A DNA stretch of 64,000 nucleotides from Escherichia phage FEC14, in sequence record MG383452; one strand, 5' to 3'. The notes below the pieces were generated by a model. That model did not search any database, was not told the origin of the DNA, and saw only the letters and a list, made by a program, of their open reading frames with translations. The number at the start of each line of letters is the position of its first letter. Within the stretch, counting starts at the first letter, position 1. Below are positions 27,961-58,830 of the stretch, one piece after another. The position numbers and the translations under genes are program-made.

Positions 27961-28000
27961 TCTCTAGTAAATACCCTCCGAAGAGGGGTATATTTTTAAA
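27961..28000 (-). promoter_or_regulatory. intergenic hairpin upstream of tailspike 1 (variant of the tailspike promoter-hairpin element)
   Basis: taccctc-cgaa-gaggggta hairpin, then AGGAG RBS and ATG on the minus strand. Confidence 0.35.
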
Positions 28001-30761: not shown

Positions 30762-30770
30762 TTGAAAATA

Positions 30771-30810
30771 CCCCATAAAGGATTTGCCAATATGGGGTAT
30801 TTAGGCTGAA
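30771..30810 (-). promoter_or_regulatory. late promoter CTAAATAcccc fused to a 5' hairpin whose 3' arm GGGGTATTT precedes the ATG
   Basis: Minus strand reads cagcCTAAATAccccatattggcaaatcctttatggggtattttcaaATG; inverted repeat taccccata / tatggggta. Confidence 0.5.
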
Positions 30811-36100: not shown

Positions 36101-36392
36101 CACGACCTTCTAACAAATTGCTAGAGGGAGCGTGAGGGAGCGTTTCCCAGCGTATTCCACCACCCCCCAAAGACAACCAACCACCGTTTTCGTAATAACC
36201 TTCAAATTCATCACTATCAGGATTGTAACGCACAGAAGATGGAAGACCTGTAACTTCAGTATCTTCAGGAAATGTCATTACGGCACCAGGGGAATGCTCA
36301 ATAGTGCCGGAGTTGTTGAAGCCTTTTATGTTCGAAGACTCAGAAGTTTCTAAACCCAAAGGGAAAAGAGGCTGTGTTGGTTTGTTGGCCAT
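33102..36392 (-). CDS. tailspike protein 4 (1096 aa) carrying an internal copy of the shared tailspike module
   Basis: Residues about 335-480 (VKDTEVIYFSVGAVLSGYKVIYDKVTQRSYFIP...) repeat the N-terminal module of tailspikes 1 and 3. Confidence 0.7.
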   Translation of the reverse strand: MANKPTQPLFPLGLETSESSNIKGFNNSGTIEHSPGAVMTFPEDTEVTGLPSSVRYNPDSDEFEGYYENGGWLSLGGGGIRWETLPHAPSSNLLEGRGYLINNTTGTSTVVLPSPTRIGDSVTICDAYGKFATYPLTVSPSGNNLYGSTEDMAITTDNVSATFTWSGPEQGWVITSGVGLGQGRVYSREIFTQILASETSAVTLNTPPTIVDVYTDGKRLAESKYSLDGNVITFSPSLPANTELQVIEYTPIQLGTGGGGSGASAITWIYNGGSAIGGETEITLDIVVDDVPAIDINGSRQYKNLGFTFDPLTSKITLAQELDAEDEVVVIINGTPNIYNQIDYTLREVARVTNVKDTEVIYFSVGAVLSGYKVIYDKVTQRSYFIPELPTGTTAVSLSSSAVLVHSAGSVDLGALAVSREEYVTLSGTFDSGAVINVKNELLTHTDGKYRWDGTLPKTVAPGSTPATTGGVGVGAWISVGDASLRTQLANGNGSLIGVHPHGTLNNVLTVRTPEQYNAVGDGIADDTSKLKEMLSDINNVPETLPDAAAVNSYMEKVAVKINLTKLYRFTETLYIPPGVSIEMPAPNFFTRECKQGLFYDPVDKNTAAISLMVYRKQPDGSYKLNKDVDYYPTGLDIDNGDAVTCARKIDISNLNLITAPGVKVGVKWIGGAGCTTKGLSIGENTGSDITTARLPRVGLLQSASWGSVHENLRILYKTQGAVFIDSNGGAAVNNAYISRLGNTNGELEQAVYKPAGFTEVGDVAVTQFAGSEVKFNSPIIEQASFDFVHAGRDTDSYGLFMVDKPHIESSGGKKKHSFYLINTSSDVTLSGVGLSGQDPDLDSMYFLKNCPETARNVVRGQMPVSGVKLVRGTGNYPTLVLDCTNMGSQFQFGEVGDIFYIKDVVGVKADTLYIDPVNGNNYNWGTNGTKPIRELTNIAKICQLFRCKSVYLNAGESVITSNTELPMVVFEGPGSLKANSGSSFLIKAGGTLSLIGLSGISTDGGHMFRVSTGEKVNIHTNCSVNAGAAYVVLSEVQGNIEYRQLFYSVNCSKYIGATAGQTIAGVMVKTATRPTGIDAAPVDGNVSLSYKIIES

Positions 36393-43775: not shown

Positions 43776-43851
43776 GGCCCCGTAGCTCAGTGGTTAGAGC
43801 AGTCGACTCATAATCGATTGGTCGCTGGTTCAAGTCCAGCCAGGGTCACCA
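43776..43851 (+). tRNA. tRNA-Met (anticodon CAT)
   Basis: Folds by hand into a cloverleaf: acceptor ggccccg/cagggtc, D-arm gctc-agtggtt-agagc, anticodon loop ctCATaa, T-arm gctgg-ttcaagt-ccagc, 3' CCA encoded. Confidence 0.8.
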
Positions 43852-43858
43852 CTAAATA
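43852..43858 (+). promoter_or_regulatory. CTAAATA late-promoter-like box on the plus strand
   Basis: ctaaataaacc immediately 3' of the tRNA-Met CCA end, about 35 nt upstream of the small ORF ATG at 43889. Confidence 0.35.
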
Positions 43859-43888
43859 AACCAGTTGTTCAATAAACAATTGGTGAGT

Positions 43889-44089
43889 ATGATGAAAACG
43901 TTCGGTGATTTTCTTACTGAGTGGGATGGTCTCGCTACCGACAACAAAGAGATTGTTGAGTTTGTTGAAAAGCGAGGCGATAAGTGGGTTGTCCTTGACC
44001 ACACCAAGACTAAAGTTCTTGGGACACATGACACCAAAGCTGACGCGGACGCCCAATTAAGGGCGATCGAAGCGAATAAACATAGTTGA
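43889..44089 (+). CDS. small hypothetical protein
   Basis: ATGATG start with GGTGAG upstream; lies between two tRNA genes. Confidence 0.4.
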   Translation: MMKTFGDFLTEWDGLATDNKEIVEFVEKRGDKWVVLDHTKTKVLGTHDTKADADAQLRAIEANKHS

Positions 44090-44102
44090 AGGGTTCTATA
44101 TT

Positions 44103-44237
44103 ATGAAGAATATTTGGGTGGTAATTTCCAACAGAATTCGCGCTAGTTGGGAAGGTCGGATGGTGAGCATCAAGAACGGGTCTCATCCAAAAACTTACGA
44201 TCGTTATGATCCTGCCCTGGGTCTTCATGCAGAATAA
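44103..44237 (+). CDS. small hypothetical protein (about 44 aa)
   Basis: Short ATG ORF from my own reading of the plus strand; below ORF-track cutoff. Confidence 0.2.
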   Translation: MKNIWVVISNRIRASWEGRMVSIKNGSHPKTYDRYDPALGLHAE

Positions 44238-44263
44238 AGAGTGTTTACGAAAGTAAGAATAGA

Positions 44264-44339
44264 GACGATGTAGTTCAGTCGGTAGAACGGCGGTCTGTTA
44301 AATCGTATGTCGCAGGTTCAAGTCCTGCCATCGTCGCCA
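44264..44339 (+). tRNA. tRNA-Asn (anticodon GTT)
   Basis: Acceptor gacgatg/catcgtc pairs perfectly; D-arm gttc-agtcggta-gaac; anticodon loop ctGTTaa; T-arm gcagg-ttcaagt-cctgc; CCA encoded. Confidence 0.8.
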
Positions 44340-45006
44340 GGATTATGTCGGGCCTTGCAGGATGGAATAGAGATCCTGTTTTGATGTCCAGGGGAGTCTA
44401 GTATTCAAAGTGAACATATGATAGCTTTGAAGAAACACAAACTAAAGATTGGGGTTTGAATCCCCCGCCCGACGACAAACAATGGGTGTGAAACGAAAGC
44501 AAGTAAGCACGAAGTACGCGAACGACAAGTTCTCTCGAGCGACGTCTAATAGCCGAACGGAATCTGAACCCGACGAAAGTAACGCCCACCAAATTCAGAG
44601 TGTAGAGGCTACAGTAGTGCGCACCTCACGGAAAGCTACACCGGACACTCTGATACAAATCTATCACTGCGTGGATTAGCTGAGGAAGGATGGCCGATGT
44701 CCTCAAGCGTGGCCCAGCACGTGGTGGTAGACCAAACACAGTAAGCGTTGCAGCCAGCTGTGTATAAAATGGGGTGACTCCACATCGAAAACGATGCCCC
44801 AACTTCCAGAAATGGTCGGGCGCGAAGCCTGTAAAGTTCCAGGAGATCGAACCAGAAGGCACTGGTGCCAGTTAACCAATCGGCGCTGATAAGCGCGGGG
44901 AGTTGGGCTACGGCAGATCAAATGCACAATCGGGTGTGAAGCCCGTCCTAATTTCGCGGGAGCCATAGGGGTTGGCCAGTAGCTGACTGCTCTCCCGCTC
45001 CAAATT

Positions 45007-45095
45007 GGAAGGTTGCCCGAGAGGTTTAAGGGACTCGACTGCTAATCGAGTGGGGCTTTTAGCCCCCGAAGGTTCGAATCCTTCACCTTCCGCCA
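45007..45095 (+). tRNA. tRNA-Ser (anticodon GCT), long variable arm
   Basis: Acceptor ggaaggt/accttcc; anticodon stem ctcga/tcgag with loop ctGCTaa; 17-nt variable arm tggggcttttagccccc; T-arm gaagg-ttcgaat-ccttc; CCA encoded. Confidence 0.8.
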
Positions 45096-45722: not shown

Positions 45723-46241
45723 ATGGCTATTTTGACATCTCCCTATTTGGGGAATATGCTTCAGACCCACCGCATTAAAACAGAAGTCAGATTTTCTGGA
45801 TTGTCACAACTGCTAACTTCTGGGGCAACTGGAATAGATTTGTTAACTGTGTTGGATGGAAAGACACCAAACCTTTCTTCTCCTACTGGTTTGGCTCCGT
45901 TCTTTAAATTATCAGATCACAAATTTCATGCGTTTCCCTATGATTCTATTCTTCCTGTGAAGGTTAATATTGTCGGATCATGGTCTGGGTCTACTTCTAA
46001 TAGAACCATGATATTAGATTTTGTGGGTTCTGTGGGGAACCAGTTATCAAGAAGTCGTGATGCTAGCGTACCGCCGCCGGACACTTTGTCTTTCATTACG
46101 TTCTTCAGTGTTGACAAGGATGGGAACCTGGCGACCAACGGGGCGCAAATGAAACTGTACTCTTATGGTGGTGACTTTACCATTACCGAGGTCGTGTTGA
46201 TCGCTGAGCAGGTTGTCCCACTCTATATGACTAGTATTTGA
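45723..46241 (+). CDS. hypothetical protein
   Basis: 172-aa ORF, AAGGAGGGAG RBS. Confidence 0.5.
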   Translation: MAILTSPYLGNMLQTHRIKTEVRFSGLSQLLTSGATGIDLLTVLDGKTPNLSSPTGLAPFFKLSDHKFHAFPYDSILPVKVNIVGSWSGSTSNRTMILDFVGSVGNQLSRSRDASVPPPDTLSFITFFSVDKDGNLATNGAQMKLYSYGGDFTITEVVLIAEQVVPLYMTSI

Positions 46242-47083: not shown

Positions 47084-48277
47084 ATGAACAAAACCATCTT
47101 CGATACCCTTTCCCTCGACCGTAATCTGGTTCACTGGGAAGATTATCTCTACAAACACACCCCTTGCGAACTCATTGCCAATCCAGAAACCAATCAGCAG
47201 GTTTGGTTCAAACGTGAAGATTACTTCGCGCCTTTGTCATGCTATATGAATGGCAAGCAGGGGATCAATGGCAGCAAACTCCGTCAGGCCATCTGGCTCA
47301 TGATGGAGCATCTGAAAGCGGGAGGATCCCCAGATCTTATCCATGGTACTGTCGTTGGTAGTCCGCAGTCCCCTATGGCGACGGCAGTCTCACGGCATTT
47401 CGGCGGCAAGACAACCACTGTGCTGGGTGCCACTAAACCAACCACATGCATGAATCATGATATGGTTTCAATGTCAGCATGGTTTGGTAGTGAGTTCAAC
47501 TTTGTTGGATCTGGTTACAATAGCACCATTCAGCCGCGCTGTAAGAAACTCATTGAACAATTAAATCCAAAGGCGTATTATCTGGAATATGGCATTACAT
47601 TGGATCATACCGTTCATTCACCAGAACGCATTGCTGGATTCCATATGCTGGGCGGGGAGCAGGTTGCCAACATCCCTGACCATATTACCGATCTAATTAT
47701 CCCTGCTGGTTCTTGTAACTCATGTACAAGCATCCTGACCGGACTGGCAATGCATCCGAAACCAAATCTGAAGAATGTCTATCTGATCGGGATTGGACCA
47801 AACCGATTAGATTTCATTGAAAGTCGTTTGCGCATTATCGGTAAGCAAGCAAACCTCCCTCACATAACTGATTTCACTCGTCGCTATCACGACAACCCAG
47901 ACTATGTGTATGGTAAGAAGGATCTCCAGCATGCCTCTAAGAGCGTTTCGCTGGCTGGCCTCCTAAGTGGTATCAGGCCAAAGAACGAGCCGGATATCGT
48001 GCTTCCTCGTTTTGAGGTACACCATTGGGATCTTCATACCACTAATTGGGTTCGTTACAACGACCTCATGGATTACCAGTGGGGAGATATTGAGTTGCAT
48101 CCTCGTTATGAAGGGAAGGTGATGACATGGATACAGGAACACAAACCAGAATTGCTTAATGAGAACTCATTGTTTTGGATCGTGGGTAGCAAGCCATATC
48201 TGGAAGCGATGAAAGCTGCTTGTCCTGAATTATCAATACCTGAACATGTCCCTGTGAATGAGTTTGTCCCCAGCTAA
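47084..48277 (+). CDS. putative PLP-dependent enzyme (ACC-deaminase / D-cysteine-desulfhydrase-like fold)
   Basis: N-terminal WFKREDYFAPLSCYMNGKQGINGSKLRQ resembles, from memory, the conserved region of that family that carries the PLP-binding Lys. AGGAGA RBS. Confidence 0.45.
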   Translation: MNKTIFDTLSLDRNLVHWEDYLYKHTPCELIANPETNQQVWFKREDYFAPLSCYMNGKQGINGSKLRQAIWLMMEHLKAGGSPDLIHGTVVGSPQSPMATAVSRHFGGKTTTVLGATKPTTCMNHDMVSMSAWFGSEFNFVGSGYNSTIQPRCKKLIEQLNPKAYYLEYGITLDHTVHSPERIAGFHMLGGEQVANIPDHITDLIIPAGSCNSCTSILTGLAMHPKPNLKNVYLIGIGPNRLDFIESRLRIIGKQANLPHITDFTRRYHDNPDYVYGKKDLQHASKSVSLAGLLSGIRPKNEPDIVLPRFEVHHWDLHTTNWVRYNDLMDYQWGDIELHPRYEGKVMTWIQEHKPELLNENSLFWIVGSKPYLEAMKAACPELSIPEHVPVNEFVPS

Positions 48278-48283
48278 TCCATC

Positions 48284-48316
48284 CTAAATACCCCATACGA
48301 CCAGTGTGGGGTATCT
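48284..48316 (+). promoter_or_regulatory. late promoter CTAAATAcccc plus hairpin plus GGGGTATCT-ATG (plus-strand copy of the tailspike element)
   Basis: atcCTAAATAccccatacgaccagtgtggggtatctATG. Confidence 0.45.
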
Positions 48317-48766
48317 ATGAAAACCTTTCTAGAATTTTATCGCGAATCAACGTTACCTGATTTTACGAATATCGTTTTGTATCATGGGTCTAATGTTGAA
48401 TTCGATATCTTTGATTTTGAAAAATTTGGCCAGACTGACTCTGGTACGATGGGTGCTGGGTTTTACCTGACGGGGGATCCAGAAAAGGCACAGATCTACG
48501 CAGAAAATGCCGTGCGCTATCGTCAATCTGGTGAACCTATTGTCATGGCATTTCGTGTCAAGGCCAAGAAGACTCTTGTAATAGATTCCAACAATGTTTC
48601 GGTGTGGGAAAATAAAATGCGTGAGTTGGGGATAAAGCCTGGTAAGATACATGATAATGTGAAAGAACTTATCAACAAAGGGTTCGATTCCATAGCCTCT
48701 ATGAGTGCCAATAACGTTGAGGAAATGGTGGTGTTTAAGCCAGGGCTGGCGACCAGAGAAGCCTAA
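48317..48766 (+). CDS. hypothetical protein
   Basis: 149-aa ORF directly after the promoter-hairpin element. Confidence 0.5.
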   Translation: MKTFLEFYRESTLPDFTNIVLYHGSNVEFDIFDFEKFGQTDSGTMGAGFYLTGDPEKAQIYAENAVRYRQSGEPIVMAFRVKAKKTLVIDSNNVSVWENKMRELGIKPGKIHDNVKELINKGFDSIASMSANNVEEMVVFKPGLATREA

Positions 48767-48801
48767 ATAGTCCAAAGCAGTTTATTCAAGAGGACATTAC
48801 C

Positions 48802-49260
48802 ATGCCAATTTCGAAATTATTTGAAGCGGATTCCCCAGCAGACATGCCTATTTGGACTGGTGTTCAAGACGGGACTACGATTGAATTCTTTGAGCGCGGG
48901 GAAACAGGTGCTGAAGAGATTTATGCTTCCGTGCAAGGGACAGACGTCGTCCGCGCCGCCGTAGCTCTTGCTACATTTTTAGAGGACGCCCCGATTGACG
49001 GTATCCCGTTTGAAGCCCATGTGGACCCAGAAGACCCGACGTCTATCATCATTACAGTCCAGGGTGCTGAATATACATCTTACAGTATTGAGCACGATGA
49101 AGAAACAGGAGCGCTGTTTATAGCCACGGATCTTCAATTGGAAGATGACGAAATTGAATATCTGAAACAGAATGGTCGTCTCCCTGAATATTCTGATGAA
49201 GAATTGGATTCAGCGTTTGACAACGTAGACGATGATGACGATTTCTGGGACGGGAAATAA
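48802..49260 (+). CDS. highly acidic hypothetical protein
   Basis: 152 aa, very rich in Asp/Glu with a C-terminal DNVDDDDDFWDGK; AAGAGGA RBS. Confidence 0.5.
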   Translation: MPISKLFEADSPADMPIWTGVQDGTTIEFFERGETGAEEIYASVQGTDVVRAAVALATFLEDAPIDGIPFEAHVDPEDPTSIIITVQGAEYTSYSIEHDEETGALFIATDLQLEDDEIEYLKQNGRLPEYSDEELDSAFDNVDDDDDFWDGK

Positions 49261-49287
49261 ACAAGGGGGGCTATTGCCCCCTTGTTT
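49261..49287. terminator. bidirectional terminator (perfect palindromic hairpin)
   Basis: caagggggg-ctatt-gcccccttg between convergent genes. Confidence 0.6.
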
Positions 49288-49831
49288 ATGCTTTGACCTT
49301 TCTTGTTGGATATTGGTTAAAAATTTTGCCGAGTTTCGACACGTTGATGATCGTGTGTGTCTTCCAATATTCAATTCCCTCTGGTGTAGTCACTTCCAGA
49401 ATCGAATAATCCCAGATATGGGAACCCTTTAAGATTGCATCACTGTGCCCACCGATTTTATTTTCTAGTTTAATGATGAATGCTTCATATTGAAATGCAG
49501 CGTTACGACGAGCTTCATCAATAAATCGTTTTTGACGGTCTGGGTCGCGCTTAACAATTTCTGGTTTACCAGGCTGATATGTTGAAGAAACGAGTTGAAC
49601 CAATGAATGATACAATGTGTGTTTAGATTTCATGCTCACGTAATCTGGATGACCAAGTCTTATCCCTACGCTGGACGGCCATGGAGCACAAGCATTAATA
49701 TCCCAGCCGTGAGATTCTAAATCTTCCATGACTTTGTTAATAATATTCGTTGCCGACATGACTGCGGCGTCTTCAGCCTGGGACAACAGAGGCTCAACTG
49801 CGATACGGACAGGAGTTTTTGGCATATTCAT
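49286..49831 (-). CDS. hypothetical protein
   Basis: 181-aa ORF, ATG start. Confidence 0.5.
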   Translation of the reverse strand: MNMPKTPVRIAVEPLLSQAEDAAVMSATNIINKVMEDLESHGWDINACAPWPSSVGIRLGHPDYVSMKSKHTLYHSLVQLVSSTYQPGKPEIVKRDPDRQKRFIDEARRNAAFQYEAFIIKLENKIGGHSDAILKGSHIWDYSILEVTTPEGIEYWKTHTIINVSKLGKIFNQYPTRKVKA

Positions 49832-49881
49832 GATATAGTCCTTCAGTTTTCAAGGTAAGCCCCCGAAGGGGCTTTGTCATA

Positions 49882-50439
49882 TTAGAGGCGGGAATCCAAC
49901 CATGCGTTCTTTTCATTCTGCCATTCCCAAGCGGCCTGACCACCTGCCATGATAACTTCCAGAGAAGGAGTATTGTCATCCTCGCCGCCGTGAAGATCTG
50001 GATCAAATCCATCATCTTCCGGATCATCTTCACATTCGTTCTGATATGCGGAATATTCAATATAATGCGCTTCGGCTTCGCAATCCATGTCTCCCAGAGC
50101 AGTCTCAAGAGTCATTTTACCTTCGGCAATCAGCTCAGCCGTTGCGTCGTCCAGACCTGCGTCTTTCGCTTCAACAAAGAGTTCATGACGTTTCTGGAAG
50201 AGAAAGAATTGCATGGCGGCAGAACGTGAATCAAAGAATTCTTGACGAGGAGCGGTGATATCACGCCCATCAATTTTACTTACCATCACGACACGAGAAC
50301 CGTACTCAACCAGGAAGCGACCGCCTTTTACGGGGTTGCTGCCGTCAACTGTGCCCAAAGTGGTGATTACACGGCCTTCTTCGGTGCCGAACAATACAGT
50401 TTTGCCGGATTTGGATTGAGCGATAATTTCGATTGCCAT
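49882..50439 (-). CDS. hypothetical protein with acidic C-terminus
   Basis: 185 aa from the internal ATG with AAGGA RBS; the track ORF extends upstream to 50619. Confidence 0.45.
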   Translation of the reverse strand: MAIEIIAQSKSGKTVLFGTEEGRVITTLGTVDGSNPVKGGRFLVEYGSRVVMVSKIDGRDITAPRQEFFDSRSAAMQFFLFQKRHELFVEAKDAGLDDATAELIAEGKMTLETALGDMDCEAEAHYIEYSAYQNECEDDPEDDGFDPDLHGGEDDNTPSLEVIMAGGQAAWEWQNEKNAWLDSRL

Positions 50440-50534
50440 GATGTATTTCCTTCTCTTCAGATTGTTGTTTGTTCGTACTACAATTAGAAGTATACGCCAG
50501 TTATTGAAGAAGTAAACTTTATTCAATAAATATT

Positions 50535-50747
50535 TTAATAAATTTTGAATTCTGCTCCTTTGTACACTGCTTTCCCTCGTTCTATGAGGCCGTCGGGGAC
50601 AACCACCTTTGTGGGCCATCCGCCGTCCGGTGCTTTGACAGTCAGGCGTGTCTTATGATCACCCAGCTGAATCTGTTCGTAAATCCTTCCTCTCACTATC
50701 GTCGCCCCGCCTTGGGTAACGAGCAATCTCTTGTTTACCACTTTCAT
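50535..50747 (-). CDS. hypothetical protein
   Basis: 70-aa ORF. Confidence 0.4.
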   Translation of the reverse strand: MKVVNKRLLVTQGGATIVRGRIYEQIQLGDHKTRLTVKAPDGGWPTKVVVPDGLIERGKAVYKGAEFKIY

Positions 50748-50788
50748 TCCTTAACACCAAAAGAAAGGGGAGTTTCCTCCCCTCTAAC

Positions 50789-51361
50789 TTATTTCTTCAG
50801 ATCAGGCCACGCACCAGAGGTCGCAGTAGACCCAGCTGGGGGAGCAGACTCAAGATCGGGAGAACCCGACTGAGTAACAACAGTGGGATCTTTGTTAACC
50901 ACTTTGACCCCAAACTGCTTGAGAGCATCCACAGCTTGCGCCTTCCGGCTGTTGCTTTTGTAATGGTTATACCCCTTGATACCGAATGATGCACTAATTG
51001 CTGTCAATAACGAATAGGTATACCATTCAGGTGCGGTATCGAGCGCCTGGAGGCCGCCGATTACTGCTTTGATGAAATCCCCTTTATGATACTCATCAGG
51101 GAACAGAATTAGTTCCACAACCGGAGCAGTCATGACGAGGATAGCGGGTACGGCCAACACGATAGTCCAGAATTCGTCTTTCCAAGACCCGCCGACTTCG
51201 GTGATCTTAGACAGCTCCCAATCTGAGGAGGACTTGATAGCCTCTAGCTTGACATCGTGTTTTGCCTGAACAACTTCCCGCTTGTATTGGATCAAATCAG
51301 TCCCGAGGTTCCAGAGTTGCTTTAGCGCCCCTGGGATAATACTCACAAAGGGGATTGCCAT
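50789..51361 (-). CDS. hypothetical membrane protein
   Basis: 190 aa from the ATG with perfect AAGGAG RBS; hydrophobic segment FWTIVLAVPAILVMTAPVV; divergent from the DNA polymerase gene. Confidence 0.45.
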   Translation of the reverse strand: MAIPFVSIIPGALKQLWNLGTDLIQYKREVVQAKHDVKLEAIKSSSDWELSKITEVGGSWKDEFWTIVLAVPAILVMTAPVVELILFPDEYHKGDFIKAVIGGLQALDTAPEWYTYSLLTAISASFGIKGYNHYKSNSRKAQAVDALKQFGVKVVNKDPTVVTQSGSPDLESAPPAGSTATSGAWPDLKK

Positions 51362-51440
51362 AATAAACTCCTTGGTCATTGAACGTTCCTCGGCTAAATT
51401 ACGGGGACGTGCTAACGGCACGGTTAACCGGAGACAAACA

Positions 51441-54437
51441 ATGACTGTTTTCTATACGAACGTTGCCCGACAGGGTAACGACCTTCTGATTCGTATTGCA
51501 GACGACAACGGCAATCGCCGTATGTTGCGTAAGAAATTCGAACCCACCTTGTATTTACCCACAGCCGATTATTCCAAAGTTGAAAAGATTGGCCTCCTCA
51601 ATGAACCGTTGGTGTCTAAAAAATTTGCGTCAATGCGTGACGCCGACAACTATCTGGAGGAATATAAGGAGGTCGAAGGCGCTGCCGTTTACGGACAAAC
51701 GGATTATGCATATCAATTCATAGCGCATAGTTTTCCTGGGATGATTACCCCCGATTACTCAAATATTCACATCGCCAACGTGGATATCGAAGTTTTCTCG
51801 GCTGGGTGGCGCGATGGAGAAATGACTAAAGGCCCATTTCCTCACGCGACGATTGAATCCCACACGTTTAAGGGGAGCGAGGCGCGTGTTCGCCGATTCC
51901 ATAAGCAAGTGTTGGCCAACCATGATTTCGTTCGAGAGCATTTCCCAGGTTCCTTTATTTCCAACAACGTGACTGACCAGTTCCCTATCATTGATAGTAA
52001 TGGTAAGATCACACAGAACATGAATGCAGCCTTCCCTATTACGCTCATCCAGCTTCAAGACATGAACACCAACAAGTTCTATGTCTGGGGTATGCCGTGC
52101 TCTAAGGATCGCCATAAATTCAAATATGATCCAAATGATGAAGAGATAGGTGGTCTTGAGGTTGAATACAAAGAATACACTACTGAACAAGAACTTCTTC
52201 GCGCTTTCTTAGATTATTGGTCTGAACGTCAATTTGATGGTTGGACTGGCTGGAACATCGAAACGTTTGATAGCCCGTACTTGGTTGAACGTATTACGCA
52301 GGTTCTCGGCGAAACCCAGGCAGAGCGCCTCAGTCCTTGGGGCAAACTCAAGAAACGTTTCATCAAAGACCGTAAAGGCGACGTGACTTCTTATCAATTC
52401 GTGGGTTGTCCTATGATGGACTACATGCAAGTTTACAAGAAACACACGTACACAACCCGCGAAAAATACTCACTGGATTGGATCGCTTATTGTGAACTCG
52501 GTGAGAAGAAGTTGGATTATAGTGAAAGCAAGTCATTGTATGATCTATATTTTAATGATTATTGCAAACACACCCGATATGGTATCAAAGACGTCAAACT
52601 CGTGTGGCGTTTAGAACAAAAGCTGCGTTTGATACAGCTGATGTTCGTATTGGCGTATCGCACCAAATCTAACTATGAAGACGGTCTTGGGACTGTAGCA
52701 CCATGGCTGGCGATGTGTTACTATCGTCTTTATGAAAAGGGGATTGTCCCTAAAATACAGCGTGTGTATGATGGTCCAACGGACTTTGAAGGCGCATATG
52801 TCATGGAGGTTGCACCAGGGATATATTTCTGGGTATTCTCTGAGGACTTAAACTCCCTGTATCCCCACATCATACAGCAATACAACCTTGGTCCTGAGAC
52901 TATCGTATCTGACAAGCACACACGTCGCGATATCATTGAGTCCATGTGTGAGGAATTAACCAAAGCGATGAATGATATGACAACGCCTATGAACAAGCGC
53001 CGTCATCTCAAAAATCTTCACGACAAGCTGCAGCGTGCTATTGATGAACGCATACAAGTTGTTGATGAATTGGTCGCGCTGGGTGAATTCCATTTTGAAA
53101 CATTACGTCGATATAACGTTTCGTTTACCCCGAACGTTCAGTTCTTCAGTAATGAGAAGATGTCCTTCCTTTCCGAAATTATGCGAGGCATATACGCTGA
53201 CCGTAAAGGAGAGAAAGCAACTGGCCTGAAGTATGAGCAATGGGCTGGTTGGTGTAAGGAAATGTCTAAAGGTGATTTCCACCTTGAATCCGCCATGAAG
53301 TCTCGTTTCTACGATCCTGAATGGTATGAAGAACACAAGCATATCGACCTTGATCACCTGACTGAAGTCATGCACAAGTGGGAAGATTTGGGAGTTGCCC
53401 AAGATACGTTACAACAAGGTCTGAAGATCTTGATGAACGCAGGATATGGTGCAATTTCTAACGTCTGGTTTAAAGAATACTTCAACATCAACATCGCTGA
53501 AGCAATTACCACTTCCGGCCAGCTGATCAACAAATGGAATAAACGACACACCGACGATTACCTCAACAAACTCTGTGGCACCACTGGTCAGGATTTTGTT
53601 ATCGCGGGTGATACTGACTCCAACTACATTTGCATTGAACGCCTGGTCAAGCAATTGTGGCCTGAAGAAAAGGACCATCACAAACTCGTTGATAACATTG
53701 ACCAATGGATCAAAGAGAATTACCAGCCAAAAACCAGTGAATGGGCGCAGTTGTTGTGTAATACCATGAACGGGTTTGAGCAGCGCATGGTCTGGGAACG
53801 TGAGGTCATCGCATCGTCTGCTGTATGGCGAGCCAAGAAGATGTATTGTATGGCAGTATACGATAGCGAAGGCATCAAGTATGAGAAACCAAAGATCAAA
53901 TTCAAAGGTCTGGAAGCGCGTAAATCAACCACTCCTGAGTGGTGTCGTGAGCGTCTGGTTAAATGTTATGAGAAAGTCCTGCTCGGTACTGAGGCAGAGG
54001 TTCAGGAATTAATCGCTGGATACAAAAAGGAATATATGGAACTCACCGTGGATGATATCGCTCAGGCATCTGGTGTGAGCGATATTGAGAAGTGGTTAGA
54101 CGCGAACGGGAATTACATCAGCGGTACGCACTTTGCTGCCAAGGCTTGTATTATGTACAACAAGTTGATCGATAAGCACGAAGATCTCGGTCTTCCCCCT
54201 ATCGAATCCGGTGATAAGGTTAAAATCATCAACCTGAAACCTGGCAATCCTGTGGGGAATGATCGCATAGCCTTCCCTGACTTCCTTCCTCCAGAATTGG
54301 GATTGGATAAATGGGTGGATTACCACACCACGTTTGAAAAGACCTTTATAGAGCCAATTCAGTCTATCTTGGATGTGGTTGGTTGGTCTCATAAACGTCG
54401 AGTTAACCTGTTGTCCATGATGGGCAAGAAAGGTTGA
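51441..54437 (+). CDS. DNA polymerase, family B (T4 gp43-like)
   Basis: Exo I DIEV, motif A DLNSLYPHII, motif B KILMNAGYG, motif C IAGDTDS. Start set at the ATG with GGAG RBS (track ORF begins upstream at 51282). Confidence 0.85.
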   Translation: MTVFYTNVARQGNDLLIRIADDNGNRRMLRKKFEPTLYLPTADYSKVEKIGLLNEPLVSKKFASMRDADNYLEEYKEVEGAAVYGQTDYAYQFIAHSFPGMITPDYSNIHIANVDIEVFSAGWRDGEMTKGPFPHATIESHTFKGSEARVRRFHKQVLANHDFVREHFPGSFISNNVTDQFPIIDSNGKITQNMNAAFPITLIQLQDMNTNKFYVWGMPCSKDRHKFKYDPNDEEIGGLEVEYKEYTTEQELLRAFLDYWSERQFDGWTGWNIETFDSPYLVERITQVLGETQAERLSPWGKLKKRFIKDRKGDVTSYQFVGCPMMDYMQVYKKHTYTTREKYSLDWIAYCELGEKKLDYSESKSLYDLYFNDYCKHTRYGIKDVKLVWRLEQKLRLIQLMFVLAYRTKSNYEDGLGTVAPWLAMCYYRLYEKGIVPKIQRVYDGPTDFEGAYVMEVAPGIYFWVFSEDLNSLYPHIIQQYNLGPETIVSDKHTRRDIIESMCEELTKAMNDMTTPMNKRRHLKNLHDKLQRAIDERIQVVDELVALGEFHFETLRRYNVSFTPNVQFFSNEKMSFLSEIMRGIYADRKGEKATGLKYEQWAGWCKEMSKGDFHLESAMKSRFYDPEWYEEHKHIDLDHLTEVMHKWEDLGVAQDTLQQGLKILMNAGYGAISNVWFKEYFNINIAEAITTSGQLINKWNKRHTDDYLNKLCGTTGQDFVIAGDTDSNYICIERLVKQLWPEEKDHHKLVDNIDQWIKENYQPKTSEWAQLLCNTMNGFEQRMVWEREVIASSAVWRAKKMYCMAVYDSEGIKYEKPKIKFKGLEARKSTTPEWCRERLVKCYEKVLLGTEAEVQELIAGYKKEYMELTVDDIAQASGVSDIEKWLDANGNYISGTHFAAKACIMYNKLIDKHEDLGLPPIESGDKVKIINLKPGNPVGNDRIAFPDFLPPELGLDKWVDYHTTFEKTFIEPIQSILDVVGWSHKRRVNLLSMMGKKG

Positions 54438-54469
54438 TTCAATAAACCAAAGGGGGATATAATTCCCCC
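54434..54469 (+). promoter_or_regulatory. sigma70-like promoter overlapping a hairpin (-35 TTGATT, 17-nt spacer, -10 TATAAT)
   Basis: ggTTGATTcaataaaccaaagggggaTATAATtccccc; the -10 sits in the loop of the gggggatataattccccc hairpin, directly after the polymerase stop. Confidence 0.4.
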
Positions 54470-54497
54470 TGTTATCCCTTTGACAACAGGTATTGTT

Positions 54498-54842
54498 ATG
54501 AAACTCAATAAGATTCTTCTGGTGTGTGCTCTGGCTTTCTCTACCACTGCATGCTCTACCCTTCTGGACGTTGCGTCTACTGTTGACCTCGATGCGCCGA
54601 CGTTCACCAATCAGCAAGCGGTGAATAAGATGGAAGACACCATCAAGGCACATGCGGCTTTGGACAACACCGCTCCTGGTCCGTTGCAAACTGTTTGCAA
54701 TTATGATGATTCCATCCAGGAAGATGAAACCTATCACTGCACCACTTACGTGAAGGAATCTTCTGTGGTTCTGTATGCAGATTGCACAGAAGAGCAATGC
54801 ACCGCAACTGGTTATGATCAAGTGGAGAAGTCTGATGAATAA
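54498..54842 (+). CDS. putative lipoprotein
   Basis: MKLNKILLVCALAFSTTAC: signal peptide ending in Cys with a lipobox-like context. Confidence 0.45.
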   Translation: MKLNKILLVCALAFSTTACSTLLDVASTVDLDAPTFTNQQAVNKMEDTIKAHAALDNTAPGPLQTVCNYDDSIQEDETYHCTTYVKESSVVLYADCTEEQCTATGYDQVEKSDE

Positions 54843-55617
54843 TCATGTTGGTCTGTATGATGCCAATTCTAAAATCGGTGGAATGTATCGTATCCTGGTA
54901 GACGTAGACTTGACTTTGGTTGATAGCCTCTCCCCTTGGGTGGATTGGTTTAATATTTCCAATTCAAAAGCTGCTGCGGAAAACATGGGTTGCCATGATT
55001 ATCCCAATGATTTCCAGCGTATCACCAAAGAGTGCTATATGGCTCATGCTGGTGATTTGGCGATCCTCATGCGGGAACGCGCTCACCCAGCATGGTTGAC
55101 ACGCCGTGTGTTTGTTGCTGGTCAATGGATGGATTCACCTACAGGACGTGATCCTATGGATTGGTGGCGCATGCCGGACCTGTATGCCAAGATGAACCCG
55201 CTTCCAGGCGCTTACGAGTTCCTGGTGAATCTGAAGAAGATCCTTCTCGAAGACTTTGAAAATGTTGAATTGATCGCAGTATCTAAGTGTGAGCCAGAAC
55301 ACGAGCGCAGCAAGCGCCAGTTTGTCTATGACAAGTTCCCTGGCATCTTCAACGGGTTCGTCAGCACCGACGAAAAGCATCTTTTGGCAGGTGATGTTTT
55401 AATTGATGATAACCCGAAATACGTTGAACCCTGTGCGATGAACAATATTTTTGTCATCTTTGTTCCCCAGGGAAATTATGAAAAACTGGATCTTTCGAAC
55501 TCGGAAGATATGCTTTATATTAAACCAGTCGAAGGCCAGAACCACTTCGACTTCCTGAACCGCAATATTGTCGAAGTGGTGAACCGCCTGATTGGCCATT
55601 ATCAATACGTCCATTGA
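54835..55617 (+). CDS. HAD-superfamily hydrolase-like protein (possible nucleotidase)
   Basis: ILVDVDLTLVD matches HAD motif I (DxDxT). ATG overlaps the upstream stop (ATGAATAA). Confidence 0.4.
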   Translation: MNNHVGLYDANSKIGGMYRILVDVDLTLVDSLSPWVDWFNISNSKAAAENMGCHDYPNDFQRITKECYMAHAGDLAILMRERAHPAWLTRRVFVAGQWMDSPTGRDPMDWWRMPDLYAKMNPLPGAYEFLVNLKKILLEDFENVELIAVSKCEPEHERSKRQFVYDKFPGIFNGFVSTDEKHLLAGDVLIDDNPKYVEPCAMNNIFVIFVPQGNYEKLDLSNSEDMLYIKPVEGQNHFDFLNRNIVEVVNRLIGHYQYVH

Positions 55618-55627
55618 GGAGGACATC

Positions 55628-55933
55628 GTGCAAGAACAATCCAAGTTTGGGGAAACCCCAGACAAGCGTTCCGGTGATAGCGATATGGATGGCGTTATTA
55701 TCCATGTGAACAACTTCATTCGTAAACAAACCACACCCACTTCCGTTGGTGCGGCGCTGGAGTTAAAGCGTGTTCTGATAGAAAACGGTATGGCACCAGA
55801 TGACGATGAAATTTTCTATAACTTCGACGACCAGTATAAAGTGAAGTTTGTAGAAAACGATCGCCCACAGGTTGCTGTTTTCTGGTCTCCCTGGTTGGGC
55901 GGTGTGAGCTGGCGTATTGAGGAAGATGCATAA
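55628..55933 (+). CDS. hypothetical protein (GTG start)
   Basis: GAGGAGGA RBS 6 nt upstream of GTG; the track ORF begins at a non-ATG codon at 55592. Confidence 0.4.
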   Translation: MQEQSKFGETPDKRSGDSDMDGVIIHVNNFIRKQTTPTSVGAALELKRVLIENGMAPDDDEIFYNFDDQYKVKFVENDRPQVAVFWSPWLGGVSWRIEEDA

Positions 55934-56838
55934 TGGCTAAAATAATTGTAGTGAAAGGAACAAGTGGCGTGGGCAAGGGTACGAGAGTAGTCCAGTTCAT
56001 CGAATGGCTCCGCACTAAGCTGGAGCCTACTGAACTCACCTACACCATTGGTGACAAGACGCGCCCATTCGGCCTGAAATTCGAAGAGCTGAAGTTAATC
56101 TTCGTCGGCCAGTATACTGTGTCCAACAAATCCGGTCTGGCTTCCTGGACTTCCATGGATGCTATTCATGCTGCCACAGGCTCGGGTGATATCGCCCGTG
56201 ATCTGGTCAAAGGCTGGCTGGCTCAGGGTTACACTTTGGTGTGCGAGGGTGAACCCCTCATGCTATCGGATAAATGGCGTCCTGAATGGATGTTCAAGAA
56301 CTATCCGATTGAATCTCTGGCGTTGCTTTATTTTGCATACCCAGACCGCTATCAGTATGATGCGCGCATCCGTGGTCGCTCTGGTAAGGAAGCGGGGGAC
56401 TCCGGCTGGTCACGCAACGAATCTTACTCCAAGGAGTTTGAGAAGTCGAAGACTGAAATGCTGGCGCTGGGTTGGGAAGTGGTGGTCAATGATTACAGCG
56501 GTCAAGACGTGTTGTATCGCCAATCGTCTACAAACACTCAAGAATTCAAAACAGGAAATGATAGCGAATTAGCCATGATGCCGTTTGATGCACCTTTGTG
56601 GGTGATTGGCAACGCTATTCATCATCAAATGCGTGGTGAGTTTCACGCCATGGGTCTGGACATCAAAGATTTCTACGGATTCTGTGAAACTGACCCAATG
56701 ACGCGTGAAGTCGGTGGGGATGATCCTCTAGCGCATCGAGTCCCTGAGAAGGCGACCAAATCTAAAACCAAGGCGAGCGCCAAGGGAGAGGTAACAAAGT
56801 CCTCTGTATCCCTTCTCGGCCTGTTGAGTAAGGGTTAG
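55933..56838 (+). CDS. P-loop kinase-like protein (candidate DNA/nucleotide kinase)
   Basis: Walker A VKGTSGVGKGT near the N-terminus; 301 aa; GAGGAAGA RBS. Confidence 0.55.
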   Translation: MAKIIVVKGTSGVGKGTRVVQFIEWLRTKLEPTELTYTIGDKTRPFGLKFEELKLIFVGQYTVSNKSGLASWTSMDAIHAATGSGDIARDLVKGWLAQGYTLVCEGEPLMLSDKWRPEWMFKNYPIESLALLYFAYPDRYQYDARIRGRSGKEAGDSGWSRNESYSKEFEKSKTEMLALGWEVVVNDYSGQDVLYRQSSTNTQEFKTGNDSELAMMPFDAPLWVIGNAIHHQMRGEFHAMGLDIKDFYGFCETDPMTREVGGDDPLAHRVPEKATKSKTKASAKGEVTKSSVSLLGLLSKG

Positions 56839-56840
56839 AA

Positions 56841-57044
56841 ATGAAACAGATGTCTAAATATTTTGTGTTCGTCGGATTGGTGATGTGTATCACAGCTGTG
56901 CTTGTCGGTGTCATGAAATATTTGGGCATCGTTGAGTTGGATTCAACCGAAATATTGAACGTTTACGCGTTATATTATTTGGGGGGTGCTATCTTATTAA
57001 CGCCTTTCGTCTATAACATAATTCAGAGTTTCAAAAGGAATTAA
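56841..57044 (+). CDS. small membrane protein
   Basis: 67 aa, mostly hydrophobic (two predicted helices). Confidence 0.45.
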   Translation: MKQMSKYFVFVGLVMCITAVLVGVMKYLGIVELDSTEILNVYALYYLGGAILLTPFVYNIIQSFKRN

Positions 57045-57045
57045 A

Positions 57046-57432
57046 ATGAAAATCCTCATTCCACGCAACGTTGTCGCTGTTGCTATTGATTACCGTGGTG
57101 ATGCGAAGATGATTAACGCTGTCCGTTATTATCCGGAACAGAATAAAATCGTCCCACAATTTCAACTGAATACCAATCCTTCTTCTAAGGATTTCGGTTC
57201 TTGGCGTCAGGTGGGTTTGGCTCGTACCCAAGTCAATGCCCAGCATTTTATTTCCGAAAAGACGAAAACCGCCAAGCAAATTTGGTTGGTGACGAATGAT
57301 CGTCGTTTCCTGCCTATCTGGTCTCTGGGACAGCCCGTAGTAAGCCCCGAAGAAATTCAGCTGGCTCCCGAAGCTGAGCCTGAAGTTGTTTCTCCTGTAG
57401 AGGAAGCGAAAGATGAAAATCAAGCAGGTTGA
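57046..57432 (+). CDS. hypothetical protein
   Basis: 128-aa ORF, AAAGGAA RBS. Confidence 0.5.
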   Translation: MKILIPRNVVAVAIDYRGDAKMINAVRYYPEQNKIVPQFQLNTNPSSKDFGSWRQVGLARTQVNAQHFISEKTKTAKQIWLVTNDRRFLPIWSLGQPVVSPEEIQLAPEAEPEVVSPVEEAKDENQAG

Positions 57433-57598
57433 TTTTATCTTCATGATGTTGATGTTCGTTATCTTTACGGTTTCGCTGGTCGGCGTCATGGTCACAGAAG
57501 GGGTGCAACAGCGCCCATTCTTGGTGATATGTCCTGTATCGATCGCCACTTTCTTCTATCTGGCGTTCCGTGTTGAACTCGGGAGTAAAATCGGATGA
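57413..57598 (+). CDS. small membrane protein
   Basis: 61 aa, hydrophobic; GAGGAAG RBS. Confidence 0.45.
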   Translation: MKIKQVDFIFMMLMFVIFTVSLVGVMVTEGVQQRPFLVICPVSIATFFYLAFRVELGSKIG

Positions 57599-58830
57599 TA
57601 CACATTTCTAAAATGCCGCAGGGATATAAAGCCCCTGAAAAATGGAAATACCCGATTGATCTGGCAGTAGATTATCGTAAGCCAGAAAATCGCATGTACC
57701 TGCTCAAGGCATGGGTGGAGGCGCTATCCTACACTGAAGAGCATAACCAGCAAGTCCGTCTGATGGATTATGCCATAGAGGTTACAGAAGGCATCACACA
57801 GCTCGAGAAGATCGAGCGCAAGATTTGGATGGCCTTTTTGTGGGGTTGTTGCTATAATGGGATTGGACCATGGACAATTTACAGTGAATTTCCTGTACCC
57901 CCACAATCTCCGAAAGAGTTTCAGCGATTTTCTGATTGGTATAACCTGAACTTTGATCGTATGCGCTTCGATACAGATTGTCGTTATCGTAAGTCGAAGA
58001 TGATTCCGTGCGTTCAGTCCTATATCGATTGGTTGGGTGGTAAAACCCAAATGGATTCTTTTCGTTGGATGTTGGAATGCACTACCAAGGAAGACCAGTT
58101 CACTGAACTGTGGAATACGGCGATGTCATGGAAATACTTCGGTCGCCTGAGCGCATGGAACTTCCTGGAAGCCCTGAACATGGTCTTCGGTAACATATGG
58201 GATATAGACGTCCCTGGTTTCATGTTGCGTGACCGTGATGGTAGCGAATCCAATCGTAACGGCGCGGCATTCTTATCCAACCGTGATGATTGGGTGACCA
58301 AGCACGGGAAGAAAAAGATCAACGGTTGTCCTATTACAGACGAAGAATGTGATATACTCGAAACCGACCTTGAGAAAGCGTTTCAGGAATGCGTTGAAGA
58401 GTTTGGCCACATCACGTTTATCAATCGTCTGAACTTTGAGACCTCCGGTGCTTGTTGGCTGAAGAAATTCTTCCGACTGAAGAATACCCGTTACATCGGG
58501 TGGGACGCCGAGCGTACATGGGACGAGATCGATTATATGGAACGTATTTGGCCTGAATACTCCTGTAAGGCATTATGGGAAGCCCGTTCACTCTGGCTAC
58601 CAGATACCCTGTTGTGCGAAAAAGCTCCTGCAGGGCACGTTCCTGGCGTCCAGAAGTGGAAGATGCCTGTGTTCTTTGAGACGGGTGTTCCTCTACATAT
58701 ATGGCATTTACAGCAGGGTACGCGTTGGGAACCATCTGAGGTTTACACTAATCTGAAAATGCCCGTCCGAAAGATAGAGGACAATCCGAAGTCGACCAGT
58801 GTAAACCTCATGTCTTTGTTGAAGCGCTGA
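57595..58830 (+). CDS. hypothetical protein (411 aa), candidate DNA-modification enzyme
   Basis: Large Trp/Cys-rich ORF two genes downstream of the P-loop kinase. I see no motif; the function is a guess from context only. Confidence 0.45.
   Translation: MIHISKMPQGYKAPEKWKYPIDLAVDYRKPENRMYLLKAWVEALSYTEEHNQQVRLMDYAIEVTEGITQLEKIERKIWMAFLWGCCYNGIGPWTIYSEFPVPPQSPKEFQRFSDWYNLNFDRMRFDTDCRYRKSKMIPCVQSYIDWLGGKTQMDSFRWMLECTTKEDQFTELWNTAMSWKYFGRLSAWNFLEALNMVFGNIWDIDVPGFMLRDRDGSESNRNGAAFLSNRDDWVTKHGKKKINGCPITDEECDILETDLEKAFQECVEEFGHITFINRLNFETSGACWLKKFFRLKNTRYIGWDAERTWDEIDYMERIWPEYSCKALWEARSLWLPDTLLCEKAPAGHVPGVQKWKMPVFFETGVPLHIWHLQQGTRWEPSEVYTNLKMPVRKIEDNPKSTSVNLMSLLKR

Follow-up and report, generated by a model that had tools for sequence, protein, structure and literature searches.

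Thymidine Hypermodification in ViI-Like Phages

In ViI-like Salmonella phages, only part of the thymidine is converted to 5-(2-aminoethoxy)methyl-deoxyuridine (5-NeOmdU). Five proteins of phage ViI, gp67, gp160, gp226, gp243 and gp247, jointly transform DNA containing 5-hydroxymethyl-deoxyuridine (5-hmdU) into 5-NeOmdU DNA (Lee et al. 2018 PNAS, PMC5889632), and the activities of the individual enzymes have been described (Lee et al. 2022 NAR, PMC8989533). ViI gp243 phosphorylates 5-hmdU in DNA in vitro. Purified gp247 transfers L-serine via the side-chain oxygen; a conserved cysteine and a conserved glutamate are essential, as demonstrated by mutagenesis. Purified gp226 contains pyridoxal phosphate (PLP) and decarboxylates the O-serinyl intermediate (PMC8989533). 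The presence of 5-NeOmdU was chemically confirmed in ViI and CBA120 (PMC5889632 as cited in PMC11721090) and in phiHS2 (bioRxiv 10.64898/2026.05.19.726188). Here, we describe a related locus of Escherichia phage FEC14 (sequence record MG383452). The window is a stretch of 64,000 nucleotides of this record. Within it, an 11.7-kb region at 47084–58830 had been proposed in a preliminary description as a DNA hypermodification module around the DNA polymerase. The region is, with high confidence, the post-replicative half of a ViI-type thymidine hypermodification pathway, located beside the replicative family-B polymerase. The module is an already known and biochemically characterised system, the textbook anti-restriction DNA modification of Ackermannviridae. 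Potential novelty is confined to a polymerase-like tail that the modification enzymes carry.

Other thymidine-modifying phages follow the same logic. The Pseudomonas phages M6 (5-NedU) and PaMx11 (5-AcNmdU) use a kinase, a clade-2 transferase and a tailoring enzyme in succession on 5-hmdU DNA. The cysteine-dependent mechanism of the transferase is common to both and to the ViI type. M6 differs by a glycine donor and a radical-SAM isomerase, and its genes form one tight operon.

The 11.7-kb region matched 276 phage records. It shares 96–98% identity with many Kuttervirus genomes (Salmonella), with phage SF02 as the best match (98.4%). Over its whole 64 kb, the window runs collinear with positions 94,612–157,061 of Salmonella phage ViI (NC_015296), where 157,061 is the end of the record. 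It hence represents the right-hand 64 kb of a Kuttervirus genome, a ViI-like member of the Ackermannviridae. Gene order, catalytic lysine, Cys/Glu pair and Walker A motif are all conserved between both phages; the differences are at strain level only (start of the PLP protein, linker of the kinase). The four open reading frames (ORFs) singled out before are present at the coordinates given then, all on the plus strand. Three of the four proteins are orthologues of characterised ViI enzymes, with 86–93% identity, which supports the proposed module. The preliminary description had recognised a ViI-like logic and missed the ViI system itself, so the product that it left unnamed has a name. Given the conserved residues K65 and E282/C287, the P-loop and the characterised ViI orthologues, the literature answers which modification results: 5-NeOmdU is the modification predicted for FEC14.

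Predicted Modification Enzymes of FEC14

The PLP-dependent decarboxylase (47084–48277, plus strand, 397 aa) is the orthologue of ViI gp226 (YP_004327553; 93% identity) and is matched over its full length by phrog_3650. K65 (within nt 47267–47287), in the conserved segment INGSKLRQA, corresponds to the Schiff-base lysine K92 of the ViI enzyme. The start at 47084 lies 27 codons later than in the annotation of gp226 (ViI 140538). The 27-residue N-terminal extension is absent in FEC14, where in-frame stops lie upstream of 47084, and also in the orthologues of the Vibrio phage 144E46.1 and the Pseudomonas phage Cygsa01. The shorter protein probably reflects the real or ancestral start. Directly 3′ of the decarboxylase gene, a 149-aa protein is encoded (48317–48766, plus strand). 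It has a match to Pfam ART-PolyVal, the ADP-ribosyltransferase domain of polyvalent proteins (41.9 bits, cut-off 31.2 bits), and matches DUF3990 too.

The 5-hydroxymethyl-dU DNA kinase ('kinase 2'; 55933–56838, plus strand, 301 aa) is the orthologue of ViI gp243 (YP_004327565; 86% identity). It opens with MAKIIVVKGTSGVGKGT, which includes the Walker A motif; the reading of this motif from the N-terminus MAKIIVVKGTSGVGKGTRVV was correct (GTSGVGKGT, aa 9–17, nt 55957–55983). The profile search assigned the protein to PF18747 HMUD2, '5-hmdU DNA kinase 2' (E=2.5e-150; 500.1 bits, cut-off 25 bits; profile positions 1–298 of 298). Compared with ViI, the linker near its C-terminus has a different sequence and 3 residues fewer, and the tail motif described below is kept. 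A search of PDB sequences with the kinase yielded no meaningful match.

The kinase gene is located upstream of the gene of a 411-aa protein, as stated before; the small ORFs between them number two to three, not exactly two. This protein (57595–58830, plus strand) had been noted as rich in Trp and Cys, and the counts are 22 Trp and 11 Cys. It is a serine:DNA transferase (amino acid:DNA transferase, aGPT-Pplase clade 2) and the orthologue of ViI gp247 (YP_004327568; 91% identity). The family was recovered as PF18724 ADDT, formerly aGPT-Pplase clade 2 (E=1.8e-57; 195.1 bits, cut-off 26.2 bits). A Glu…Cys pair, E282 and C287 (ETSGAC; nt 58438–58455), aligns with the ET..C of the clade-2 homologues from the Vibrio phage, Cygsa01 and PhiW-14 (gene 109). 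A MAFFT alignment that combined clade-1 with clade-2 transferases was of insufficient quality for comparing active sites between the clades, and the analysis drew only on its clade-2 rows and C-terminal block. PDB sequences gave no meaningful match to the transferase.

The pathway may start with 5-hydroxymethyl-dUTP, provided by a thymidylate-synthase-like dUMP hydroxymethylase, a dNMP kinase and a dUTPase/MazG, all encoded outside the window. During synthesis by the polymerase, 5-hmdU would replace part of the thymidine. Judged by 86% identity to gp243, the kinase would phosphorylate the 5-hydroxymethyl group on DNA, yielding 5-PmdU. The 91% identity to gp247 suggests that the transferase swaps this phosphate for the side-chain oxygen of serine, with L-serine as donor and an O-linkage: Cys287 would attack C6, the phosphate would be expelled and the side-chain oxygen of free L-serine would be added, forming O-serinyl-thymidine. 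The PLP enzyme, with 93% identity to gp226, would decarboxylate O-serinyl-thymidine in DNA to 5-NeOmdU. The modified DNA would resist many restriction endonucleases. The kinase, transferase and decarboxylase steps are established in the literature for the ViI orthologues and are expected for FEC14 at 86–93% identity.

The early genes of this pathway are located elsewhere in ViI. The dUMP hydroxymethylase is encoded at 37.2–38.2 kb, outside the ViI span of the window (94.6–157 kb). Kinase 1 (gp67), the dNMP kinase and the dUTPase are encoded together with the hydroxymethylase at 36–39 kb, the clade-1 transferase (gp160) and the MazG protein at 87–89 kb. The earlier statement that the window holds no dUMP hydroxymethylase was borne out by tblastn, in which the thyA-like protein of ViI found nothing. 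Among the ViI pathway proteins, only gp226, gp243 and gp247 matched in the 64-kb window.

The fourth protein of the proposed module is a HAD-superfamily NT5C-type 5′(3′)-deoxyribonucleotidase-like protein (54835–55617, plus strand), orthologous to ViI Vi01_194 (86% identity). The start at 54835 is preferred over the mechanical ORF start at 54775: it agrees with the annotation of ViI and lies in a more favourable ribosome-binding context. The assignment as a HAD hydrolase holds. The Pfam PF06941 match (32.7 bits) is above the gathering score of 24.8 bits, the motifs DVDLT (aa 23–27, nt 54901–54915) and LIDDNP fit DxDxT and DD, and deoxyribonucleotidases were the only PDB matches, which are weak (E=0.01–0.08). 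In the Vibrio phage and Cygsa01, the homologue adjoins the polymerase or kinase gene. Its place in the module is unproven: the modification was demonstrated with five other ViI proteins, gp67, gp160, gp226, gp243 and gp247, and neither paper mentions a nucleotidase (PMC5889632, PMC8989533). No paper on a dTMP nucleotidase of hydroxymethyluracil phages came up in a literature search. The HAD protein is probably a nucleotide-pool enzyme. It would most likely act on deoxynucleoside monophosphates and may, for example, deplete dTMP. As precedents, the Bacillus hydroxymethyluracil phage SP5C induces a dTMP 5′-nucleotidase, and the uracil-DNA phage PBS2 induces a dTMP phosphohydrolase.

A Polymerase-Like Tail on the Modification Enzymes

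In phage T4, the C-terminal peptides of gp43, gp55 and gp33 bind the sliding clamp gp45 and are interchangeable (PMC2988020). The FEC14 polymerase is of the T4/RB69 gp43 type. Its identity as a family-B enzyme (51441–54437, plus strand; orthologue of ViI Vi01_190) was confirmed by PF03104, PF00136 and the similarity to RB69 gp43 (E=5e-112). The mechanical ORF begins with a TTG at 51282; the ATG at 51441 is the likely start. The polymerase ends in …KRRVNLLSMMGKKG and contains the peptide RVNLLSMM (54399–54422, plus strand; aa 987–994 of 998). HMMER aligned its …KRRVNLLSM to …EKKASLFDM(FDF) of RB69 gp43. The aligned RB69 residues lie within the 11 C-terminal residues that were co-crystallised with the RB69 sliding clamp (PMC2988020).

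Near copies of this peptide are present in the three orthologues of the ViI enzymes, all on the plus strand. The kinase ends in …KSSVSLLGLLSKG, where a variable linker rich in Lys, Ser and Thr precedes the candidate clamp-binding peptide SVSLLGLL (56803–56826; aa 291–298 of 301). The transferase ends in …KSTSVNLMSLLKR, with the candidate peptide SVNLMSLL (58798–58821; aa 402–409 of 411) 2 residues from the C-terminus. In the whole window, SVNLMSLL is the third-best match to the polymerase peptide, the polymerase itself counted. Both motifs are thus located 2–3 residues from the C-termini, behind divergent linkers. The decarboxylase has a candidate motif in an internal position: SVSLAGLL (47942–47965; aa 287–294) is part of a variable loop, SKSVSLAGLLSG, with indels and low conservation, flanked by conserved blocks.

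Across the complete genome of ViI, only five real proteins contain the pattern V[SN]L[LMA][SG][LM][LM]: the polymerase, gp243, gp247, gp226 and Vi01_049c, a Zn-ribbon protein of 70 aa. The C-terminus of gp160 has a close variant, SVNLLDRL, with the candidate peptide GSVNLLDRLKKPE. The enzymes acting on nucleotides (thyA-like, dUTPase, dNMP kinase and HAD protein) are without the motif. The tail is also absent from all small ORFs interleaved with the modification genes of FEC14 (54480–57598). The N-terminus of kinase 1 (ViI gp67), MSYSLKGLLKR, resembles the motif, and relatives have YGLFARK and MTTLFRK; this likeness is suggestive only. Among the other clamp-binding proteins of T4, gp33 ends in KSKKLI in Kuttervirus, and Kuttervirus gp55 has only an internal FSLEDIM.

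The tail motif shifts in step across four phage lineages. In the Vibrio phage 144E46.1 (Ackermannviridae), the ending [KR][KR]LW is shared by polymerase, kinase 2, the two transferases and a Zn-ribbon protein, and no genuine gene of the genome besides these five has it. The decarboxylase loop has KTRRLF (KTRRLFGG) and gp33 ends in KTRKLF. The polymerase of this phage carries two motifs, VNLFALGG and the KLW tail. Tails of the DFF-/DLF-type are present in Cygsa01: ASVMDFFS in the polymerase, NVFDLF in the kinase, NDLMGFFQ and SVLDLF in the transferases, ASLTSFFG in the decarboxylase loop and SLTTLFG in gp33. The Delftia phage PhiW-14, which makes alpha-putrescinylthymine, is T4-like and has its own clamp. 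It differs from the ViI type by its putrescine donor, a pathway that involves no PLP decarboxylase and a GLGxFF motif. Its kinase (GLGGFFKG) and both transferases (GLGSFFR and TLAQFAP) end like its own polymerase (KLGAFFV) and gp33 (SLGGFAAT). The gp33 protein thus bears the tail type of its lineage in the Vibrio phage, Cygsa01 and PhiW-14 and differs in Kuttervirus. Circularity was avoided by seeding the scans only with the tail peptide of each phage's own polymerase. These scans recovered the modification proteins at their exact C-termini. The siphovirus M6, which has no clamp, served as a negative control; its modification enzymes are short and share no polymerase-like tail.

Two further proteins of PhiW-14 (NC_013697) end in the motif: an exonuclease (gene 32, 26496–27356) in GLGGFFA and an NrdA.1-like protein (gene 98, 81188–81487) in GLGAFFT. 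The range of clamp partners marked by the motif may thus be broader.

A small Zn-ribbon-like protein (CxCGG…CxxC) bears the lineage-specific polymerase-like tail in ViI (NC_015296, 30355–30567, minus strand), the Vibrio phage (MW824370, 56741–57007, plus strand) and Cygsa01 (PP179332, ~109399–109640, minus strand). In the Vibrio phage and Cygsa01, a DNA ligase gene is located directly 3′ of its gene; no annotated coding sequence of Cygsa01 ends at the stop of this ORF. The Zn-ribbon-like protein may be a clamp adaptor.

Alternative Explanations

Some database labels disagree with the assignment of the pathway. RefSeq records and PHROG 4409 name the kinase a 'guanylate kinase', and some records label the PLP protein a 'putative threonine ammonia lyase'. 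Correct labels would mean a guanylate or dNMP kinase and a threonine ammonia-lyase, genes of ordinary nucleotide and amino-acid metabolism without a role in DNA modification, which is very improbable. These are legacy names from similarity; the kinase is matched by the dedicated family HMUD2, and the in vitro assays, in which the ViI orthologues phosphorylate 5-hmdU and decarboxylate O-serinyl-thymidine in DNA, refute both functions for these orthologues; both functions were rejected. None of the module proteins is covered by an NCBIfam model. Several observations weigh against the assignment to the ViI pathway. The PLP-enzyme signature noticed in the preliminary description is seen as Pfam PALP (fold-type II, E=1.6e-7), and this match is weak, with 31.4 bits under the gathering score of 35 bits. 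A sequence search found no PDB relative of the PLP protein. The hydroxymethylase, kinase 1 (gp67) and the clade-1 transferase (gp160) are not in the window and are presumed from close relatives, and the HAD protein is without an experimental link to the pathway. The product predicted for FEC14 rests on the chemistry of relatives, among which the substitution varies, from ~40% in ViI (PMC11721090) to ~16% in phiHS2 (bioRxiv 10.64898/2026.05.19.726188).

The resemblance of the tail on the DNA-acting enzymes to that of the polymerase suggests that they ride on the sliding clamp of replication. Extending the pathway reading, we consider it probable from sequence comparison that the shared tail tethers the kinase, both transferases and the decarboxylase to a gp45-like phage clamp. 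Modification would be coupled to replication and would work on clamps left on nascent DNA. The gene of the clamp (Vi01_135c in ViI) is located outside the window. This is supported by the alignment of the polymerase peptide with ASLFDMF of RB69 gp43, the peptide crystallised on the clamp, by the specificity for five proteins plus the gp160 variant in ViI, by the covariation in the Vibrio phage, Cygsa01 and PhiW-14 and by the exact C-termini reached with polymerase peptides only. The confinement to DNA-acting enzymes, with absence from nucleotide-level ones, and the tail-less enzymes of clamp-less M6 agree with this. The C-terminus of gp33, an established clamp binder in T4 (PMC2988020), serves as a positive control, and the binding of T4 alpha-glucosyltransferase to gp45 (PMC13216743) is a precedent. 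Against clamp tethering, the purified ViI enzymes are active on naked DNA without a clamp (PMC8989533); the motif is therefore unnecessary for catalysis. Clamp binding of the T4 alpha-glucosyltransferase is reportedly not the main determinant of modification levels (PMC13216743). The decarboxylase motif is internal, not C-terminal. The gp33 tail of Kuttervirus resembles the Vibrio-type motif, unlike the polymerase motif, and the Vibrio phage polymerase has both VNLFALGG and the KLW tail, so two motif classes or binding sites are possible. Alternatively, the tail may be a real short linear motif that addresses another hub, such as a single-strand-binding protein, a helicase loader or a chaperone, or a signal for degradation or localisation. 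The covariation shows a common partner without naming it, and the K-K-L-W of the Vibrio phage is unlike the hydrophobic-acidic clamp peptides of T4 (gp43 SLDFLFG, gp55 SLDFLYEAND). This alternative is nonetheless unlikely: polymerase and gp33, C-terminal clamp binders in T4/RB69, carry the lineage motif at the same positions, and the PhiW-14 exonuclease ends in the motif, as expected of a clamp 'toolbelt'. Clamp tethering of the DNA-level enzymes appears as the most economical reading.

T4 and the ViI-type phages have in common that a post-replicative DNA-modifying enzyme would be tied to the clamp and that clamp peptides are C-terminal behind variable linkers. They differ in the peptide: the T4 alpha-glucosyltransferase is without a clear copy of the gp43 peptide (best YEFLYQ), and here a near copy is present on every DNA-acting enzyme of the pathway. 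Clamp binding was demonstrated in T4 and is predicted here. A literature search found no report linking hypermodification enzymes to a polymerase-like clamp peptide. Somewhat more cautiously, we favour a general rule for T4-like phages that encode a clamp: every DNA-acting enzyme of thymidine hypermodification would copy the clamp peptide of its own polymerase and modify from the clamp, and the peptide would co-evolve with the polymerase, gp33 and the small Zn-ribbon protein in at least four lineages.

Gene Layout and Neighbouring Genes

The four genes of the proposed module share the direction of the polymerase gene, as stated in the preliminary description. Three minus-strand ORFs (49286–51421) part the PLP gene from the polymerase gene, and a single operon of all four genes was rejected because of these intervening ORFs. 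Small conserved ORFs on the plus strand are interleaved with the modification genes (54480–54842, 55592–55933, 56841–57044, 57046–57432 and 57413–57598). They encode a lipoprotein-like DUF7292 protein, a DUF7254 protein, a pair of predicted small membrane proteins and a member of phrog_4163.

Upstream of the region, the window contains three plus-strand tRNA genes at 43776–45095, Met-CAT, Asn-GTT and Ser-GCT. In the surrounding stretch of 41.8–45.2 kb, no ORF reaches 100 aa, and the same gap is unannotated in the ViI record. A 172-aa protein (45723–46241, plus strand) has an Sf6-type tail needle knob domain (PF16532, E=2.2e-28) and the same annotation in the ViI record; it represents a podovirus-type module inside a myovirus genome. 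Four large tailspike-like genes are located on the minus strand at 25.6–35.3 kb (25707–27941, 27996–30776, 30867–32999 and 33102–36392). They have almost no nucleotide similarity to ViI save for short segments, and the flanks are 87–93% identical. This divergence is the expected exchange of the host-range cassette in Ackermannviridae.

Implications

The module was recovered by a first-stage reader from the raw sequence alone and in itself adds nothing new. Clamp tethering, if true, would explain how DNA-modifying enzymes of low affinity locate newly made phage DNA. It could also bear on the partial substitution of thymidine (~16–40%). The tail would provide a simple sequence rule for telling enzymes that act on DNA apart from those that act on nucleotides when new modification clusters are found, and swaps of the peptide would offer a handle for engineering heterologous hypermodification in phage chassis.

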